From: Candidatus Omnitrophota bacterium
GTDB lineage: Bacteria; Omnitrophota; Gorgyraeia; Gygaellales; Profunditerraquicolaceae
Direction: 5' to 3'
DNA length: 64,000 nucleotides
NCBI GenBank assembly: GCA_026387335.1
Contig: JAPLLX010000003.1
Span: 74,230 to 138,229 of the forward strand
Each line of letters begins with the position of its first letter. Within the stretch, counting starts at the first letter, position 1. Made by a program: the position numbers and the translations under genes. Positions 3,453 through 32,120 of this stretch are shown one piece after another. The notes under the pieces were generated by a model that was not told where the DNA came from, did not search any database, and saw only the letters and a list, made by a program, of their open reading frames with translations.

Positions 3453-4730
3453 TTATCCTACTGATAAGGCTTTCCGTATTTTATCTTCTATCCCCGAAAG
3501 CGGCCCGATCAGGCTTAAATTAATGTTTTTGTCATCAAATATCTCAGCCGCGGCTTCCCGGATACTAGCCCTATCCACACGATTCACTTCAGCAATGATA
3601 TCCTCTAAAGAAAATGTTCTATCCAGCTTAAGAGTAGTTTCACCTATCCAAAGCATATGTTCTAAAGTATCCTCTAAGGCCAGCCTTAATTGGCCGATAT
3701 AAAATTCTTTCGCCCGCCTGAATTCACCGGCAGTAACCAGATTATTTCGGGTTTTCTTTAATTCTTTCAAAATCAGGGGTATAGCCTCTAATACTTGCTT
3801 ATTATCAATTCCCGCGTGCACAATAAACGCCCCGGTATCCTGAAAACGCTTGACCAGCGAACCTATCTCGTAGGCCAGCCCGCGTTTCTCCCGGATTTCA
3901 TCAAAGAGGCGCGAGGACATATTAGCGCCTAATATGACATGGAGCATGCCCAAGGCGTGTTTCAAAGGATGTTCCCTCTTAAAACTCCGGAATCCCAAAG
4001 CCATATGGGTCTGTTCGGTTTCTTTATGGAAAAGTTTAAAAGCCGGCGCGTCCTGATTTTCTCTGACTCGCTGAAAAGTGTTTAGCCTGTTAGCTGGGAG
4101 TCTGGAGAATATCTTATTTACAGAGCGCTCTAATTTTAGGCTATCCAGATTGCCGCAGGCGCTGACCACGATATTGGAAGCGGTATAATAGCTCTCTTTA
4201 AAATCTAACAGCTCTTTTCTGCCTATGCTCTTTACGGATTCAACCGTGCCTATGATGGGTGAACCCAGGGGCTGCTTTGGCCAGAGCAATTCATCCAGAA
4301 GCTCATACACATAACTCTGAGGAAGATCCCTGTACATCTTTAACTCTTCCAGAATGACTGTCTTTTCTTTTTTAATATCGCCTGTAAAAAGCAGGGGATT
4401 GATCACCATATCCGCTAAAATATTTAAGCCCGTATTCAGACGCGCAGCCGGCACTTTCACCAGATAGCAGGTAAGCTCTTCCGAAGTAAAACCGTTTAGG
4501 GACCCTCCGATACCCTCAATAGATTCCTTAAGCAGCCGGCAGGAATAGTTCTTGGTCCCCTTAAACAAAAGATGCTCTAAGAAATGCGCCGCGCCTTTGT
4601 TTCGTAAGCCCTCGTATCTTCCGCCCACATTTATCCATATACCCAACGCCGCCGACTCCCGCTTAGGCATATTATGGCTGATGATCTTTAATCCGTTATC
4701 TAAACGCGTCTTTTTATAAATATTTTTCAT
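3453..4730 (-). CDS. M16-family zinc metallopeptidase (insulinase/pitrilysin-like)
   Basis: 425 aa with the inverted zinc-binding motif HxxEH ('AHFLEHLLFKGT') near the N-terminus and a downstream glutamate region typical of M16 peptidases. Confidence 0.85.
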   Translation of the reverse strand: MKNIYKKTRLDNGLKIISHNMPKRESAALGIWINVGGRYEGLRNKGAAHFLEHLLFKGTKNYSCRLLKESIEGIGGSLNGFTSEELTCYLVKVPAARLNTGLNILADMVINPLLFTGDIKKEKTVILEELKMYRDLPQSYVYELLDELLWPKQPLGSPIIGTVESVKSIGRKELLDFKESYYTASNIVVSACGNLDSLKLERSVNKIFSRLPANRLNTFQRVRENQDAPAFKLFHKETEQTHMALGFRSFKREHPLKHALGMLHVILGANMSSRLFDEIREKRGLAYEIGSLVKRFQDTGAFIVHAGIDNKQVLEAIPLILKELKKTRNNLVTAGEFRRAKEFYIGQLRLALEDTLEHMLWIGETTLKLDRTFSLEDIIAEVNRVDRASIREAAAEIFDDKNINLSLIGPLSGIEDKIRKALSVG

Positions 4731-5512: not shown

Positions 5513-6696
5513 ATTTTGCCTTTAGTCACTATTCCCAAGTCCTTATCTCCCCTGCCGGATAAGCAGACTATAACAATTGATTTCCGGTTAATTTTCTTAG
5601 CTAACTTCTTTAAATAGGCGATAGCGTGCGCTGATTCTAACGCCGGAATTATTCCTTCTAACTTAGAAAGTAAATCAAACCCTTCCAGGGCTTCTTTATC
5701 GTTGATCGCGACATATTCAGCCCGGCCGATTTTCTTATAATAGGCATGTTCCGGCCCGACCCCGGGATAATCCAGCCCGGCAGAAATAGAATGCGTAAGG
5801 CTGACCTGGCCGAATTTATCCTCTAATAAACCTGACTTTGAGCCATGTAAAACGCCTATATCGCCGTTCACTAAAGTAGCCGCGTGTTTACCGCTAGATA
5901 ATCCTCTTCCGCCGGCTTCCACCCCGATAAACCTTACTTTTTTGTCATTAACAAACGGATAAAATAACCCCAGGGCATTACTTCCTCCGCCTACGCAGGC
6001 AACCAGGTAATCCGGCAGACGTTTTTCTTTCTTTTTAAGCTGGACCTTGGATTCGCTTCCGATCACCGACTGAAAATCCCTTACCAACATCGGATAGGGA
6101 TGCGGCCCGGCAACAGTACCGATGATATAATGCGTATCGCGCACATTAGTCACCCAATCGCGCAGAGCCTCGGTCATCGCGTCTTTTAAGGTCCGGGAGC
6201 CGCTTTTTACCGGGATCACATTCGCGCCCAGCAGTTGCATACGGAAAACATTGGGCTTCTGCCTTTCCATATCTTCCTGGCCCATATAAACATCACATTT
6301 TAATCCAAAGAGGGCCGCAACCGTAGCGGTAGCTACGCCATGCTGGCCCGCGCCGGTCTCCGCGATTACCCGCGGTTTTTTCATCCGCAGGCACAGAAGC
6401 GCCTGAGCCAGAGTATTATTTATTTTATGCGCGCCGGTATGTAAAAGGTCTTCCCTTTTAAGATATATTTTATTTATGCCTAGATGCCGGCTGAGCTTCT
6501 TAGCAAAATATAACGGCGTTGGCCGGCCGGCGTATTCATTTAAATAAAATTTAAGCTCCGTCTTAAACTGCTTATCTCTTCTCGCCTTTTTATATTCTTT
6601 TTCCAATTCATCCAGGGCAAAGATCAGCGTCTCCGGAACAAACCTGCCGCCAAATTCCTCAAAATGCCCGGATTTATCCGGTAATTTTTTTTCCAT
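5509..6696 (-). CDS. trpB: Tryptophan synthase beta subunit (PLP-dependent)
   Basis: 395 aa with 'HTGAHKINN' around the PLP lysine and the 'GGGSNA' glycine loop. Typical TrpB length. Confidence 0.95.
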
Positions 6697-7622: not shown

Positions 7623-8407
7623 CCCATTAGTTCTTCGACCTTAGCCTTGATATTTTCCGCCTGCATAAAAGCCGTACCGATTAAAACCGCGCTGACCCCC
7701 AGAATTTTTAAAAACAGGATATCCTGATAAGTCTTAAGCCCGCTCTCTACAACTACTACTTTATCCTTGGGAATCAAGGTATATAATTTTTCAGTCGTTT
7801 TAGGGTCAACCTCCAGGGTATGCAGATCCCGGTTATTTATGCCGATAAGCGCTACCCCTTTTAATTTTAAGACCTTTTTTAGTTCCTTTTCATTATGCAC
7901 TTCCACTAAACAATCCATATTCAATTGCGTAGCCAGGGCCATAAATTGGGTTATTTCATCCTGGGTGAGCAAATCCGCGATAAGTAGTATGGCGTCAGCC
8001 CCGTAAAACCTGGATTCGTAAACCTGATAAGGCTCAATAATGAAATCTTTCCTTAATACCGGGACCGCGGCTATATTTTTTATTTCATTAATATAAGAAA
8101 TACTCCCCAGAAAATAATCCTCTTCGGTCACAACCGAGATCGCCTGGACTCCTGCCTCCTGATAGATTTTGGCAATATCCAGATGGTTAAAATCCTGCCG
8201 GATTAGGCCTTGCGAAGGCGAAGCCTTTTTTATTTCAGCGATCAGGGAAATCTGGCGCGGCTTACTTAACGCCTTAATAAACGGCCGGGTAGGACTAAGC
8301 CCCTGAACCTTGGCTTTTAATTCCTCTTCAGGAAGAAGCTGCTTAGCTAAAGCCAGGCGCTCTTTTTTCTTTAGGATGATCTCTTTTAAGGTGTCTATTT
8401 TTGCCAT
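7616..8407 (-). CDS. trpC: Indole-3-glycerol phosphate synthase
   Basis: 263 aa with 'IAEIKKASPSQG', 'RKDFI', 'LIGINNRDL' and 'ESG' motifs characteristic of IGPS. Confidence 0.9.
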   Translation of the reverse strand: MAKIDTLKEIILKKKERLALAKQLLPEEELKAKVQGLSPTRPFIKALSKPRQISLIAEIKKASPSQGLIRQDFNHLDIAKIYQEAGVQAISVVTEEDYFLGSISYINEIKNIAAVPVLRKDFIIEPYQVYESRFYGADAILLIADLLTQDEITQFMALATQLNMDCLVEVHNEKELKKVLKLKGVALIGINNRDLHTLEVDPKTTEKLYTLIPKDKVVVVESGLKTYQDILFLKILGVSAVLIGTAFMQAENIKAKVEELMGW

Positions 8408-26638: not shown

Positions 26639-27340
26639 TTAATTCTCCTTTCGCACATTTGATTTTAATAGATCCGGCCGTCTTGCTCGCGTCCTTTTTA
26701 ACGCTTCTTTATTTCTCCAGGCTTCTATTTTCTTATGATCCCCGGAAAGAAGGACTTCCGGCACGCTCATCTTACGAAAATTCGCTGGCCGGGTATAATG
26801 CGGATGTTCTAATAGATTACCCTCAAATGACTCAAAATTCAAGGAATTTTTATCCCCTAAGACCCCCGGAAGAAGCCGCACAACACTATCCACCAAAACC
26901 ATAGCCGCCAGTTCTCCTCCGGTAAGCACATAATCGCCTATGGATATCTCCTCATCCACCAATTTTTCCCGTACTCTCTCATCCACTCCCTCATAATGCC
27001 CGCAGATAAGAATTATGTGCTTCTCTTTTGAAATATTTTTAGCGATTTTTTGGGTAAGTTTTTCGCCTTGAGGGCATAATAAAATTACTTTTGACTTTTT
27101 ACCTTTTATTTTTGATTTGATATGCTCAACCGCCTTAAAAATCGGCTCCGGCTGCATAAGCATACCTGAACCGCCTCCAAAAGGCCGGTCATCAACCTTA
27201 CGGTGCTTATCCGAGGTATAATCCCTTAAATCATGAATATGAAATTTAACCTTACCTTTATCTTGAGCCCGCAGCATAATGGATTCATTCAGCACAGGCG
27301 CAAACATTTTAGGAAATATAGTAATTATATCTATCCTCAT
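26639..27340 (-). CDS. trmD: tRNA (guanine37-N1)-methyltransferase
   Basis: 233 aa SPOUT knot MTase. '[13 protein letters not shown]' and '[14 protein letters not shown]' are TrmD signatures. Confidence 0.95.
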
Positions 27341-28473
27341 ATTGCCTGTCCTTTGGCGTATTCCAGCAAAAATTCTTTTTTAAACTCGCTGAATTGATTA
27401 TCTTTAATCGCTTCCCGTATCTTACGGGCCAAATCTAAAAAGAAATATACGTTATGTAAAGAAAGCAAGGTCAAACCCAACATCTCCTGAGCGTTAAATA
27501 AGTGCCGCAGATAGGCCCGGCTAAAATTCCGGCAGCAATAGCAGCCACATTTTTCATCCAAAGCCTTAAAATCATCGGCAAATTGGGCGTTGCGGATGAT
27601 AATCTTCCCGCGGCTGGTAAACCCTGTCCCATTCCTGCCGTAACGGGTGGGAACAACGCAATCAAACATATCAATCCCCCGCTCCACCGCCTCAATTATA
27701 TCCGGCGGATAACCTATACCCATGGCATAGCGCGGTTTTTCAACGGGCAGAAAATTAGCTGTGTATTCTAATATATTATATATTAAATCGCTGGGTTCGC
27801 CAACTGAAACTCCGCCTATGCTAAAACCGTCAAAATCAATATCAATCAATTCTTTAGCGCATTCAGAACGCAGATCCTCATAAGTCGCTCCCTGCACAAT
27901 GCCGAATAACACCTGCTTCTTGGTCGGGCCATGTTTCTTATGCTCCTTAAAATGTTTATACGAACGCTTGGCCCAGCTGATTGTGCGTTTCATGGCGATT
28001 TCCGCGTGGTCCTTAGTACAAGGATAATGCACGCATTCATCCAACGGCATCATTATATCCGAACCTAAGTCTTGCTGAATATCAATTACGTCTTCAGGGG
28101 TCAGGAAATGCTTAAAACCGTCTATGTGCGACTGAAATTCAACTCCCTTGTCGCTTAACTTTCTTAGAAGCGCTAAACTAAAGACCTGATAACCGCCGCT
28201 ATCCGTAAGAATGGGTTTTTTCCAGGAGATAAACTTATGCAAGCCGCCGGCTTTCCGGATAATATCCATTCCCGGACGCAAGAATAAATGATAAGTATTA
28301 GAGAGCATGATTTCCGCGCCTGCCTCTTCCACATCCTTAGGATAAAGGCCCTTAATGGTAGCATGCGTCCCTACAGGCATAAAAGCCGGCGTATTAATTA
28401 CCCCATGCTCTGTAGTAATCCTGCCCAACCTGGCTTTGCTCTTCTTATCTTGCTGAATTAATTCAAACATCAT
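27337..28473 (-). CDS. tgt: Queuine tRNA-ribosyltransferase (tRNA-guanine transglycosylase, bacterial type)
   Basis: 378 aa. It has the catalytic 'DSGGYQ' and 'VPTRYGRNG' regions and the Zn site 'CGCYCC...H' (CxCxxC...H) diagnostic of canonical bacterial Tgt, not archaeosine or DpdA-type enzymes. Confidence 0.95.
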
Positions 28474-28540
28474 TAGTCATTGCGAGTCCGCCGTAGGCGG
28501 ACGAAGCAATCTCTGCGTTGTTATGCTACGTTTATCCTTT

Positions 28541-28673
28541 AAGGTCACAATTTGTGACCTTAAACAATACGCCTTGTTATCTAAAATCTTGAAGTCACAA
28601 TTTGTGACTTCAAACAAATACGCTTAGAGTATACCTTGTTACCTGGAATCTTGAAATCACAAATTGTGATTTC
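28541..28673. repeat. Three tandem degenerate units (about 50-62 bp each), each containing a 21-bp palindrome built on TCACAA-TTTGTGA, in the tgt 5'-flank and island boundary
   Basis: The palindromes are aaggtcacaatttgtgacctt (28541-28561), gaagtcacaatttgtgacttc (28591-28611) and gaaatcacaaattgtgatttc (28653-28673). Arm substitutions are compensatory (agg/cct, aag/ctt, aaa/ttt). Each is followed by an aaacaa(a)tacgc...ccttgtta...aatctt tail. Confidence 0.6.
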
Positions 28674-28736
28674 AAGTAATAAGCCCTGCTTAGAAACAAG
28701 TCAAGTCATACGCTATACAAATCCGAACCGTCCCCT

Positions 28737-29312
28737 TTATGTAAATTCAATTTCGTATTTCGCCTTAAATTTTTCAAACCAATCGAGAAGGTCTCTACAG
28801 AAATATGAAATGATTAAACCGAATTTTAGTTTAAATTTTGTAAACTTATGAGAACCCTGCGATCCAAAATTTTCTATATTTATATTAAGTAAATTTAGAA
28901 TGAAAGAATCCACTAAGACAGAAAACGTTAACATTTTTGCTCCTTTTTCCATAATCTCCCAATCACTTTTAATCGCCTTGTAATATTGGGCATACCGAAT
29001 TACTATAATATTATGTACACCCTTAAGACCCTCTTCTGAAATGTCTGGGTGCCGAGCAGGATTATATATTGCTTTATGCATACCATCTAAAACTATTTTA
29101 ATATTTTCTTCCCCAAGGTAAGCAAATATTCTTTGAAAACAATAAGTTAGAAGAAATACCCAAAGATAAAAAAGTTCCCATTCAATTCTTTTATCATCTT
29201 GCAATATCTTTTCTTCTTTTATGACTTCTCCCCAAGCTGATGATGAAAATTTACTTATCGCTTCTTTGCAAAATGTCTCTACAAATATTTCATAAGGTAT
29301 GGATTGTGACAT
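28737..29312 (-). CDS. Hypothetical protein (191 aa), distal gene of the A+T-rich 3-gene insert. Possible paralog of the 30329-30907 product
   Basis: The ORF is very A+T-rich with K/I/F/N/Y-rich codon usage, unlike the neighbours. The start lies 4 nt after the stop of the 307-aa ORF, indicating translational coupling. It has one long hydrophobic segment and the motif 'MHKAIYNPARHPD'. Confidence 0.5.
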   Translation of the reverse strand: MSQSIPYEIFVETFCKEAISKFSSSAWGEVIKEEKILQDDKRIEWELFYLWVFLLTYCFQRIFAYLGEENIKIVLDGMHKAIYNPARHPDISEEGLKGVHNIIVIRYAQYYKAIKSDWEIMEKGAKMLTFSVLVDSFILNLLNINIENFGSQGSHKFTKFKLKFGLIISYFCRDLLDWFEKFKAKYEIEFT

Positions 29313-29316
29313 TTAT

Positions 29317-30240
29317 TTACCCTTTTTGTAACTGACCAACAGAAGGTTTTTTAAGTTTCAGGAGTTCTGCTATCAACTGCTTAACTTCCGAATGAAGATT
29401 TAAATCCTCAAATTGCCCTCTAATGTTTGTAATTTCAAGAAGCAACCTTGAAGATGAAACTAATGCCATTTTTGCTGTTTCTAAATCTGCCCTTGGATTT
29501 ACATCTCTCTTGTCTGGCTTCTCTTTAAACAAACCCAAACCTATAAAACTTGAGTGTGTTGCCATAGAGAATTTTTTATAAATCCTATACCATTCCAAAC
29601 CTTGATTATCACAAACTCTAAAAATATCTTCTATCTTTTCGTATTCTGGTTTATACCAGAAATTTCTTAGTTTGCCTTTTTTAATAAATTCAGATTTATA
29701 TTCTTCTGCCCTCTTTTTGTATTGTGGATTTAATCTATTTAATTGGAAGTTAACTTGACCCATATTGAAGTCTTTTTCATATTCGTTGAAATCTTCATCC
29801 AGGTAACTATTTAATAAATCATGTGCATAGAATTTAAACGCCATATATTCGCTATCTTTCTTAACGATAGCTACTGAATTCGTAAAGCATTCTAGGAGGC
29901 TTCGTATAATTACAGGGGCTACGGAAACCCATCCATCTTCACACATAGATAAAATACTCCTATCTAAAATAACTGCTCTCTCTCCTATTATATACAGACA
30001 CCCTCTTGCTAAAATATCTTTTCCGGCTAAAGGACTTGGGGGGTTGTATTTTTTGAAAGACGCCAAGTTTGTTTTAACAGCGAAATCTATGACCTTATTA
30101 TAAAAATCTAAATACGCAAATACTTCAGGGGTGGACTTAACGAACCCTTTTGAGCCAGTTATTTTCCCTCTTCTATATCCTTCTCTGACACCTCTTTTAA
30201 ACCCTTCTATGTATACCTTTTTAGCAATAAATTTTAACAT
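29317..30240 (-). CDS. Hypothetical protein (307 aa), middle gene of the A+T-rich 3-gene insert
   Basis: It has an ATG with an upstream AAGGAG. Composition matches its flanking partners, not the host genes. I recognise no catalytic motif. It has a basic N-terminus (KRGVREGYRRGK) and is predicted largely alpha-helical from the residue pattern. Confidence 0.5.
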   Translation of the reverse strand: MLKFIAKKVYIEGFKRGVREGYRRGKITGSKGFVKSTPEVFAYLDFYNKVIDFAVKTNLASFKKYNPPSPLAGKDILARGCLYIIGERAVILDRSILSMCEDGWVSVAPVIIRSLLECFTNSVAIVKKDSEYMAFKFYAHDLLNSYLDEDFNEYEKDFNMGQVNFQLNRLNPQYKKRAEEYKSEFIKKGKLRNFWYKPEYEKIEDIFRVCDNQGLEWYRIYKKFSMATHSSFIGLGLFKEKPDKRDVNPRADLETAKMALVSSSRLLLEITNIRGQFEDLNLHSEVKQLIAELLKLKKPSVGQLQKG

Positions 30241-30328
30241 AATCTAATATCTACTCCTTTAATTATTCCGTGGCACATTACTTGATTATCTTTTCTCCGA
30301 GGAATTAAGTATCGTACCCAGGACTCCG

Positions 30329-30907
30329 TTATTTAATTCTAAATCTTTCTGCCGCTAATTTTAATAATTCAAAATCATCAATGCTAATACTCTTCGGCAT
30401 ACCTATGGAATCCAGAAATTTCATAGTGTCTGCTCTGTCTTTCAATAAATGAGGATACTTAAGCCAAAACCATATTTCGAACATTACAACAGATTGGGAT
30501 TGTCTATATTTCAAACATTCATTAGATGCTATATGCCTAAATAAATAGCATGCCTCAATAATACGAAAAGGTAATGTATCTGTTTCATAAGATAAAACGT
30601 CATCTAGGTCATTATCAGCATGTTTAAAGAAATTTTGAGCCTTGTGAATAGTATTTATCCATAATTTCTTATACTCTGGCTTTATATAATCAGAATCATG
30701 GAGAAAAGCTTCAACGCCATATTTTTTTCCTAATGGCATTAGTACGCCTATGGCAGCTCCTACCAATGTTTCAATAACTACAGGATTAGCCTTATCAAAA
30801 AATAAAAAAATAGCTTCATTTAGTTGTATTTCCGCGGCTTGAATCTTCTTAAAATTAATCTTCATAATCCATTTTTGGTAATTTTTAGAAAAGTACTGAA
30901 TTTTCAA
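30329..30907 (-). CDS. Hypothetical protein (192 aa, or 178 aa from the internal ATG at 30865), first gene of the A+T-rich insert
   Basis: The track start is a TTG. The in-frame ATG lies 14 codons in. It has a hydrophobic segment 'VVIETLVGAAIGVLMPLG' and the motif 'IHKAQNFFKHADND', which resembles that of the 28737-29312 product. Confidence 0.45.
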   Translation of the reverse strand: MKIQYFSKNYQKWIMKINFKKIQAAEIQLNEAIFLFFDKANPVVIETLVGAAIGVLMPLGKKYGVEAFLHDSDYIKPEYKKLWINTIHKAQNFFKHADNDLDDVLSYETDTLPFRIIEACYLFRHIASNECLKYRQSQSVVMFEIWFWLKYPHLLKDRADTMKFLDSIGMPKSISIDDFELLKLAAERFRIK

Positions 30908-30976
30908 ATGACACCGGCACGCTTAGCCGCGGATATTAATGTTAATTATGGATATTTTGCCGAAGGGTGTTGTGAA

Positions 30977-31105
30977 GCGCACAATTAGAAAATTTTCGGC
31001 AAAAGAGTGCGAGGAATTACGACGAACGGAGGAATTCCTTTCTAGCGTAAGTCCTTCCGGGAGTGAGTCGTAAACCGAAGCACTCGGCGAAAATTTTCGT
31101 GCGCG
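30977..31105. repeat. About 130 bp structured element. Imperfect 25-34 bp inverted repeats flank a hairpin-rich core, and each arm contains a perfect GAAAATTTTC palindrome
   Basis: The left arm is gcgcacaattagaaaattttcggcaaaagagtgcg (30977-31011). The right arm is cgaagcactcggcgaaaattttcgtgcgcg (31076-31105), the reverse complement with small indels. The inner core has nested stems (ttacgac/gtcgtaa) and a GGAATTCC palindrome. It lies 23 bp downstream of the queA stop. Confidence 0.5.
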
Positions 31106-31127
31106 AACAATACCCGCAGGCGAAATA

Positions 31128-32120
31128 TCAAAGAATCAACATTGCGTCGCCGTAGCTGTAAAACCTGTATTTCTTATCCACTGCTTCCTGATACGCCTTT
31201 TTCATCAACTGCTCTCCGCCAAAAGCGCATACCAGCATAAAAAGCGTGGTCTTGGGCAAATGAAAATTTGTCAGCAAGCAATTGGCTAATTTAAATTTAT
31301 AACCCGGATAAATGAATAAATTTGTTTGGCCTTCTTTTATGCCAGTAGCATAAACCTCTAAAGCTCTTAATGAAGTTGTGCCTACGGGAATTATGCGGGA
31401 GTTATTCTTGCGCGCTTCTTCTATTTTTTCTTGCGCGGGTTTAGGAACCTGAAAGGATTCCGGTTCCATTTCATGCTCGGTAATATTATCTGAAGTGACC
31501 GGCTTAAACGTGCCTAAGCCGACATGTAAAGTCAAATACGCGGTTTTTACTCCCTCATCTTCTATTTGCTTAAGCAGCTCATTAGTAAAATGCAGTCCGG
31601 CGGTAGGAGAAGCTATCGCGCCCTCTTTATTCGCATAAACTGTTTGATAATATTCTTTATCTAAATCTTCCGGCTCTCTTCTGATGTAAGGAGGAAGCGG
31701 AACCTGGCCGAATTCATAAATTTTATCCGCGTCTTTTAGCTTAAAAGAAATCTCCCGGCGGTTAGTTACTGCTCCCTCAATCTTATCTTTTCCGAAAAAT
31801 ATCTTCTCGCCTATTTTGGTGCGGCTGGGTTGGATCAACGCTTCAAAAGTAGAGCCGCTTCTGCGCTTAGTCAATAAAATCTCAACCTTGCCTCCGGTAG
31901 CCTTATGCCCGATTAAACGGCAGGTAAGCACCTTGGTATCATTTAAAACCAGAAGGTCGTCTTTTTTTAAATATTTGGCGATATCCTTAAAAAGGCAATG
32001 CTCAATTTCTGAGTTTGAGCGGTTGACAACCATAAGCTTGGCTTCCACTCTATCCTCTAGAGGATATTGGGCGATTAATTCTTTGGGCAGGTTATAGTCA
32101 AAATCAGAGAGTTTTAACAT
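31128..32120 (-). CDS. queA: S-adenosylmethionine:tRNA ribosyltransferase-isomerase
   Basis: 330 aa. The N-terminus 'MLKLSDFDYNLPKELIAQYP' and the overall length match QueA, which acts directly after Tgt in queuosine synthesis. Confidence 0.95.
   Translation of the reverse strand: MLKLSDFDYNLPKELIAQYPLEDRVEAKLMVVNRSNSEIEHCLFKDIAKYLKKDDLLVLNDTKVLTCRLIGHKATGGKVEILLTKRRSGSTFEALIQPSRTKIGEKIFFGKDKIEGAVTNRREISFKLKDADKIYEFGQVPLPPYIRREPEDLDKEYYQTVYANKEGAIASPTAGLHFTNELLKQIEDEGVKTAYLTLHVGLGTFKPVTSDNITEHEMEPESFQVPKPAQEKIEEARKNNSRIIPVGTTSLRALEVYATGIKEGQTNLFIYPGYKFKLANCLLTNFHLPKTTLFMLVCAFGGEQLMKKAYQEAVDKKYRFYSYGDAMLIL

Follow-up and report, generated by a model that had tools for sequence, protein, structure and literature searches.

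What kind of DNA separates the queuosine genes queA and tgt in a genome of Candidatus Omnitrophota, and do the three open reading frames (ORFs) found there form one system or several? The question is raised by a 64,000-nucleotide stretch of contig JAPLLX010000003.1, referred to here as the window, in which the three frames, named orfA, orfB and orfC, fill an interval of 2,654 bp between two core genes. Omnitrophota are uncultivated, often ultra-small bacteria, and to our knowledge almost nothing is known of their mobile gene pool or their phage defence. An earlier note on this DNA, made from the letters alone, proposed that the frames are a horizontally acquired operon of the defence or toxin-antitoxin kind. 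We consider it fairly likely that the interval is a small variable accessory islet, situated at a queA-tgt insertion hotspot of one Omnitrophota lineage and holding independently mobile, probably conflict-related genes. The five genes, whose coordinates had been correctly given in the earlier note, all lie on the minus strand:

31128-32120, minus strand: queA (S-adenosylmethionine:tRNA ribosyltransferase-isomerase), ORF; core gene and upstream border of the hotspot, with 68-81 % identity to Omnitrophota queA.
30329-30868, minus strand (open frame on to TTG 30907): orfA, 179 amino acids (aa); probable HEPN fold, AbiV-like.
29317-30240, minus strand: orfB, 307 aa; Pfam DUF5677 (PF18928), all-helical.
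28737-29312, minus strand: orfC, 191 aa; member of a rare orphan family in which LDxxH and RYxQYY motifs are conserved.
27337-28473, minus strand: tgt (queuine tRNA-ribosyltransferase), ORF; core gene and downstream border of the hotspot, with 59-89 % identity to tgt in Omnitrophota loci.

The spacings are also as claimed before, with 4 nt between the orfB stop and the orfC start, an 88-bp spacer between orfA and orfB, and a 220-bp region upstream of orfA. In the orthologous pair of a more distant host (L071), queA carries PF02547 (Queuosine_synth) and tgt carries PF01702 (TGT). Strand bias is extreme throughout the window (1-64000): every one of the 58 non-overlapping ORFs of 150 aa or more is on the minus strand, and the islet genes have this same orientation.

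The composition of the islet is foreign. GC content in the interval is 0.337 vs 0.448 in the rest of the window, which makes it the minimum among 2.65-kb stretches of the 64 kb, about 4.7 standard deviations (SD) under the mean (mean 0.443, SD 0.023). The reference set for individual genes was made up of the 55 further ORFs that do not overlap, are at least 150 aa long and share the strand, giving 58 genes with the three. The GC content of third codon positions (GC3) in the islet genes is 0.229, 0.249 and 0.279, compared with 0.492 +/- 0.036 in the reference genes (z -5.9 to -7.3), and these are the three lowest values among the 58. Codon adaptation is lowest in orfB and orfC, with orfA ranking sixth, and the residues K, N, I, F and Y make up 0.34-0.39 of the islet proteins vs 0.286 in the reference genes. 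The A+T-rich, foreign character that had been judged by eye is thereby borne out by windowed GC, GC3, codon adaptation and K/N/I/F/Y content.

The junction itself was compared by scanning species-representative genomes with the tgt protein, yielding 21 Omnitrophota loci in each of which queA, tgt and trmD were located. Ten genomes with tgt 59-79 % identical (L020, L022-L027, L029-L031) have a queA-tgt gap of 3-47 bp, whereas the ten closest genomes (tgt 81-89 %; L012-L019, L021, L063) have gaps of 231, 304, 578, 731, 990, 1064, 1185, 1721, 3257 and 5875 bp. Within the phylum, queA and tgt were ancestrally contiguous, and in the clade of the window the junction is a variable hotspot filled with different low-GC cargo in each genome. 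This contrast of gap sizes supports the view of the earlier note that the insert interrupts an otherwise contiguous pair as acquired accessory DNA. That note had also set beforehand a comparison that could overturn this view, namely whether the same three ORFs recur between queA and tgt in relatives; they are not kept there, and relatives of orfA, orfB or orfC appear in none of the 20 other Omnitrophota queA-tgt loci from the tgt scan. The three ORFs thus do not make up a core locus conserved in the clade, and the accessory reading stands this comparison. As expected of a variable hotspot flanked by core genes, queA and tgt are kept as flanks in the 21 Omnitrophota loci, and the content between them varies.

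The cargo of the sister genomes illustrates this turnover. The gap of L012 holds an ORF6N/Rha-like protein and a 245-aa protein with an RNAVVH motif; that of L013 holds an HTH_17 excisionase-like gene, a Fic protein and a flavodoxin, with the Fic protein related to one encoded on an integrase-bearing element that carries an orfC relative. DUF1330 is found in the gap of L016, and DUF3592 together with a complete group II intron in that of L015. In L071 (tgt 72 %), a 4.8-kb queA-tgt gap contains an orfA relative with otherwise different genes (L071 4397-11290). Overall, the hotspot cargo comprises Fic, ORF6N, a HEPN-motif protein, an orfA relative and DUF5677, as well as flavodoxin, DUF1330 and membrane proteins. 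The 245-aa ORF of L012 (plus strand, gap coordinates 114-851) has the canonical HEPN-type motif IIRNAVVHND and no Pfam match, and the hotspot may thus contain a second HEPN-like gene that is unrelated to the first. Additionally, a predicted 131-aa membrane protein is encoded directly upstream of tgt in four sister genomes, at 71-97 % identity, and is absent from the window:

L013 7604-7999, L016 7605-8000, L018 7601-7999 and L063 7604-7999: gene of the 131-aa membrane protein.

Since this gene is kept in the sister genomes and missing here, the lineage of the window has lost a gene at the junction besides gaining three. An apparent remnant of about 35 codons of the same gene is seen in L014 at about 7855-7965.

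Whether the three genes belong together was addressed in 13 other loci encoding relatives of orfA, orfB or orfC, each of which was searched with all three proteins and had its neighbours clustered. A single co-functional and hitherto undescribed operon of the defence or toxin-antitoxin kind, with orfA for example as a HEPN toxin and orfB or orfC as sensor or antitoxin, would suit the shared direction and tight packing of the genes, the 4 nt between orfB and orfC, the foreign composition common to all three and the HEPN-like character of orfA. However, none of the 13 loci holds two of the three families, including those of the 83 % (orfB) and 81-85 % (orfC) identical relatives, whose contigs are long enough to include a neighbour, and no neighbour family recurs across orfA, orfB or orfC contexts, except for the L007/L010 element itself. 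The orfA relative in the same gap of L071 likewise has entirely different neighbours. The single system put forward in the earlier note is therefore not supported; it is largely refuted by the missing co-occurrence, and we regard it as improbable. The type II toxin-antitoxin pattern, in which two small adjacent genes co-occur across genomes, is not seen either. Moreover, the GC content of the relative is below that of its host locus in 11 of 11 contexts measured, by 3-14 points, and this AT-richness together with the absence of co-occurrence identifies the three as independently mobile accessory genes. The islet is thus a set of three unrelated accessory genes, each from its own small family, and not one new three-gene system. 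The proposed translational coupling of orfB and orfC, at their 4-nt spacing, is conserved nowhere else, and the tight packing is a local arrangement instead of a conserved operon. The suggestion that two of the ORFs are diverged paralogs failed: BLASTP gave an E value of 92, and comparing the three family profiles with one another in hhalign gave probabilities of 0.1-0.6 %; orfA-orfC paralogy in particular was ruled out (BLASTP E = 92, hhalign probability 0.1 %). The comparison with known defence models, which the earlier note had called for, returned 0 PADLOC families for the three proteins at E <= 1.

Several results weigh against the islet of mobile, conflict-related genes proposed here. 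No model of PADLOC (PADLOC-DB v2), PHROGs or NCBIfam matches orfA, orfB or orfC, and some orfA relatives are surrounded by ordinary housekeeping genes, none of their neighbours being a defence gene. The sample is limited to 13 other contexts, and P0003-P0005, the closest orfB relatives, whose contigs are short, lie outside it. The one DUF5677 ORF assayed experimentally was not among the 5 of 9 ORFs found protective, giving no protection against six Enterococcus phages (bioRxiv 10.1101/2025.10.07.681051). As to the acquisition route, the queA-tgt gap of the window has no integrase, excisionase or transposase ORF, and a repeat search of the window revealed no direct repeats flanking the insert. 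The last two results bear equally on the explanation that the islet is a decayed integrative element, such as a small island or prophage fragment beside queA whose integrase and attachment sites were lost. That origin would fit the 85 % orfC relative, which resides on an element with HTH_36, Fic, HTH_3, an HTH_17 excisionase-like gene and a tyrosine integrase, the HTH_17 gene and the related Fic gene in the L013 gap, and the AT-richness of all cargo. Nevertheless, the gap shows neither the recombinase gene nor the flanking att-like direct repeats of an integrative island or prophage, and its coding strand has just three ORFs of 50 aa or more, none of them a recombinase; no orfA, orfB or orfC relatives were found in viral contigs; and the three independent gene distributions suggest several events and not one element. 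We judge such an origin unlikely, and it overlaps with the accessory-islet reading.

A native origin has also been weighed, in which the three would be fast-evolving accessory factors of queuosine or tRNA modification and would owe their odd composition to function or expression level. The location within a queH-queA-tgt-trmD cluster and the adjacency of orfA relatives to queA in two other genomes agree with it; the absence of the genes from all 20 other Omnitrophota loci of the scan, the unrelated contexts in which relatives of all three occur and GC3 values 6-7 SD under those of native genes make it scarcely credible. The thought that the frames are spurious, arising in AT-rich non-coding DNA, draws on that AT-richness, on the lack of functional annotation and on the orphan status of orfA and orfC. 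Three long frames on the gene strand, despite the stop-codon richness of AT-rich DNA, homologs down to 33-54 % identity with motifs and lengths kept within each family, and a confident AlphaFold2 (AF2) model of orfA speak otherwise; this conservation at the protein level already refutes the idea, whose likelihood is close to nil.

For the accessory islet, the following course of events is proposed. Cargo would arrive and turn over by horizontal transfer, and might become fixed by homologous recombination in the conserved flanks or represent the remains of a decayed integrative element, while hairpin repeats could simply accumulate in a tolerant intergenic spot. The three genes would act as stand-alone conflict genes and not as one machine, and at least two of them are probably conflict- or defence-related. 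OrfA is predicted to be a dimeric, AbiV-like HEPN RNase that, once triggered, would cut cellular or phage RNA in an abortive-infection or toxin-like manner; its catalytic motif would consist of the invariant His83 and Asn79, with Gln78 or Lys82 in place of the canonical Arg. OrfB is most likely an accessory protein travelling with defence islands, and orfC most likely mobile-element cargo.

The case for orfA rests largely on fold and neighbourhood. Translation likely starts at ATG 30868, as in most homologs, rather than at TTG 30907, giving 179 aa, and 35 homologs were found. The AF2 model is confident and all-helical, with a predicted local distance difference test score (pLDDT) of 90 and a predicted template modelling score (pTM) of 0.87. 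Its best structural match is AbiV (201 aa; PDB 9bj5), followed by the HEPN domains of Csm6, MNT-associated HEPN toxins and sacsin HEPN. The sole invariant polar cluster, Q78-N79-F80-x-K82-H83-x3-D87 (QNFxKHxxxD; 31 family members), is found where the third long helix ends. AbiV has its catalytic RNHKSKH motif in the loop after alpha3, with R and H not strictly conserved across AbiV relatives (bioRxiv 10.1101/2024.05.05.592566). OrfA, at about 180 aa, resembles AbiV and the HEPN RNases (Anantharaman et al. 2013, PMC3710099) in being all-helical and in having an invariant polar cluster that ends in His at a similar place. Its relatives also have neighbours of conflict type, comprising the BrnT/BrnA toxin-antitoxin genes with an MNT-like gene, a 2,001-aa NACHT ATPase, an MNT-HEPN pair and a PIN protein.

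Other results count against the HEPN assignment. OrfA has no family in Pfam (E <= 1), NCBIfam, PADLOC or PHROGs, and only chance-level PADLOC matches occur across the orfA family. Among HEPN-clan Pfam models, HEPN_Apea comes closest, reaching E 0.13 in 2 of the 31 members. No HEPN protein was retrieved when PDB sequences were searched with the orfA profile, and Foldseek on the orfA model returned nothing significant, without recovering the AbiV/HEPN similarity. The canonical HEPN Rx4-6H motif is also lacking, with no conserved Arg at QNFxKH in the 31 members and Gln standing in for the catalytic Arg. The missing Arg weighs against canonical HEPN membership, but orfA may still have a HEPN-like activity, since R and H vary among the AbiV relatives themselves. 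On balance we lean towards calling orfA HEPN-like, filing it neither under AbiV nor under any HEPN Pfam family. Unlike AbiV, its relatives show no conserved adjacent antitoxin RNA or protein. The 200-300 nt upstream and downstream of six relatives have nothing in common except a spacer hairpin in L071, and a partner RNA in the style of AbiV/abiV2 was rejected on the grounds that these flanks contain nothing orfA-specific and that the spacer hairpin is present in L015 without orfA. One relative, next to the 2,001-aa NACHT protein (L003/L004 5952-6489), has an apparent N-terminal frameshift, with tblastn placing residues 14-34 and 36-192 in different frames; it may be a pseudogene or an assembly error.

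OrfA relatives stand beside queA in two further genomes, namely in the same gap of L071 and upstream of queA in L068 (1050-4281), where an MNT-HEPN pair lies between. This placement could point to a general hotspot around queA or to a functional link. A far bolder version would make the orfA family a new HEPN-type ribonuclease with a Gln-for-Arg active-site variant whose repeated position beside queA and tgt has a function, for instance as an anticodon nuclease acting on or gated by queuosine-modified (GUN-anticodon) tRNAs in the manner of colicin E5, with the spacer hairpin serving in cassette expression or movement. We think this very improbable, and the relatives in L001, L003, L067, L069 and L089, none of them near queA, contradict a functional tie to queuosine.

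The earlier note found no known-family motif in any of the proteins. This holds for orfA and orfC in Pfam, NCBIfam, PADLOC and PHROGs but not for orfB, which matches PF18928 with 54.3 bits vs a gathering score of 27.1 (E = 2.2e-14, profile positions 16-156 of 166). Its homologs, about 13-14 in number, all carry PF18928 above the gathering threshold, and by this profile evidence orfB is a bona fide DUF5677 member. The orfB model has a pLDDT of 78 and generic helical-bundle matches only, with an orfB-specific extra N-terminal helix that is rich in lysine and arginine and of low model confidence. Downstream of the 83 % identical relative (L008, L009) there is no orfC; the 68 % relative stands alone, with a peptidase gene on one side and an autotransporter gene on the other; and the 45 % relative is flanked by type I restriction-modification/GmrSD genes and a full-length Drt1a reverse transcriptase (PADLOC E = 0). 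The only literature found on the family reports DUF5677 as enriched in serine-recombinase-associated defence contigs (bioRxiv 10.1101/2025.10.07.681051).

OrfC belongs to a very small family, with 5 homologs in 5.8 billion clusters and, in a deep search of 1.84 billion proteins, 23 representatives at E <= 0.001. No link to Pfam, PDB or the orfA and orfB profiles was obtained, and the 23 representatives contain no informative domain. The 81-85 % relatives sit after an unrelated protein of 202-207 aa, on the element with Fic, HTH genes, the excisionase-like gene and the tyrosine integrase. In P0063 (523 aa), GlutR_N and Shikimate_DH domains precede an orfC-like region (residues 351-484, E 9e-7), which occupies the position of the C-terminal helical domain in a glutamyl-tRNA reductase-like protein. 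Fusions to unrelated N-terminal regions occur in some representatives; P0061, P0069, P0073 and P0074 have unannotated N-terminal extensions.

Hotspots of defence and accessory genes between core genes are known from cDHS1 and cDHS2 of Pseudomonas aeruginosa (Johnson et al. 2023, PMC10250203) and from the defence islands of E. coli (PMC10121019). The queA-tgt site resembles them in lying between housekeeping genes, in holding differing, mostly uncharacterised low-GC cargo of which part is conflict-type (Fic, ORF6N, HEPN-like, DUF5677), and in needing no mobility genes inside. It differs in being far smaller (0.2-5.9 kb), in belonging to an uncultivated phylum, in having no recognised PADLOC system in the islet of the window and in the metabolic or membrane-looking nature of some sister cargo (flavodoxin, DUF1330). 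The site is thus demonstrated as a variable hotspot and not as a defence hotspot. It is not a new kind of system but a familiar variable islet between core genes, with repeats resembling miniature inverted-repeat transposable elements (MITEs), in a poorly studied phylum. With queA and tgt ancestrally only a few bases apart, the hotspot is compact and easily recognised, and it could be mined across metagenome-assembled genomes for accessory and defence genes. Three single genes also become tractable candidates: orfA, from a HEPN-like family whose motif departs from the canonical one, orfB as a DUF5677 member, and orfC from its very rare orphan family.

Dispersed MITE-like hairpin repeats bracket the cargo and, together with terminator-like palindromes, are interspersed among it. 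The structured flanks described in the earlier note are confirmed on both sides, with RNA-fold z values of -6.55 and -3.85 vs shuffles. The non-coding features of the window, and the intron of one sister genome, are as follows:

30950-31127, minus strand: queA-side hairpin repeat of ~180 nt with long imperfect inverted arms GCGCACGAAAATTTTCGCCG ... GCCGAAAATTTTCTAATTGTGCGC; fold z = -3.85.
30250-30319, minus strand: orfA-orfB spacer hairpin, ~50 nt, two-tier, directly upstream of the orfB ribosome-binding site.
28680-28714, minus strand: degenerate left arm AGCGTATGACTTGACTTG of a dispersed inverted-repeat hairpin, at the tgt-side edge of the inserted cargo, just after orfC.
28538-28679, unstranded: palindrome TTTAAGGTCACAAATTGTGACCTTAAA of 25-29 nt in three tandem copies 50 and 62 bp apart; terminator-like.
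28486-28502, minus strand: GC-rich hairpin GTCCGCC-TAC-GGCGGAC in the tgt leader, read from the sequence and contained in the minimum-free-energy fold.
L015 4430-6346, in the queA-tgt gap of a sister genome: group II intron, with RF02005 at 4470-4701, RF00029 at 6254-6321 and a 432-aa reverse transcriptase.

The queA-side repeat recurs in L012 as a full-length, inverted copy by tgt, and in L018 its left half comes after queA; it is not found upstream of orfA relatives in other contexts. It is MITE-like and not orfA-specific.

The dispersed hairpin element has terminal inverted arms TTAGCGTCTGNCTTGNCTTG ... CAAGCCAANCCATCCGCTAA and a GC-rich interior of ~5 to ~150 nt. Its arm directly follows the queA stop in L012, L013, L014, L017, L019 and L063 and also occurs elsewhere (L017 12682, L071 9342). 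The copies located are:

L012 3338-3499; L014 7771-7812; L017 7709-7867 and 12682 (minus strand); L019 7293-7470; L071 6764-6930 and 9342 (minus strand).

In one stem of the interior, L017 and L071 show changes that are apparently compensatory (GTTTTGCC/GGCAAAAC vs GTTGCGGC/GCCGCAAC), and the element could be a MITE or a structured RNA. Rfam gave no match for the structured flanks or for the hairpin elements of the relatives, its sole matches being those to the L015 group II intron.

The spacer hairpin is single-copy in the window, and a consensus fold was obtained for it. Copies 91-97 % identical lie at L015 3617-3651 and L071 7653-7687, just upstream of the start of the next gene, with a ribosome-binding site in the window and in L071. 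The metagenome collection added a single match, to the very contig of L071, and viral contigs gave none, by which a widespread cassette junction was ruled out. The L015 group II intron (5' GTGCG at ~4438, 3' end at 6321) splits another copy of the hairpin exactly, and joining the exons across it restores GGGGACA|CGATACTTAATTCCTCGGAGAAAAG. Because the intron lies exactly inside a hairpin copy, the hairpin looks like an intron homing target. Directly upstream of the 5' junction of the intron, an irregular tandem array of short AATTCCG-type repeats (gaagaattccg... caattccgg...) occupies L015 4335-4430.

These features invite comparison with integron cassette arrays and clusters of attC sites lacking integron-integrases (CALINs; bioRxiv 10.1101/2024.07.02.601686), which the islet resembles in its short, co-oriented, uncharacterised genes with structured repeats between them and in the intron within an inter-gene hairpin, as with class C introns at attC sites. 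Unlike in integrons, the gap and its immediate surroundings contain no integron integrase, some genes have no hairpin after them, the palindromes are grouped at one end instead of one per cassette, attC R''/R' core sites were not seen on inspection by eye, and the inter-gene hairpin is rare, with its one further metagenome-collection match.

The palindrome occurs nowhere else in the window. Matches numbered 5 vs 0.04 expected by chance, and it is present once each in the queA-tgt gaps of six relatives (L012-L015, L018, L063), including the 231-bp 'empty' gap of L014. Its second copy was flagged as terminator-like; in a scan for promoter and terminator consensus sequences, counts were not above shuffled expectation. 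In unrelated viral contigs, the palindrome core is a hairpin followed by a T-run. A link to phages was discarded, the 16 viral-contig matches being generic terminators, of which at least 6 share identical flanks (one lineage), with no related genes. Because the same hairpin and T-run arrangement recurs in unrelated phage contigs, the palindrome is a stem-loop of the generic terminator type, and the copies downstream of orfC most likely terminate islet transcription or insulate it from tgt.

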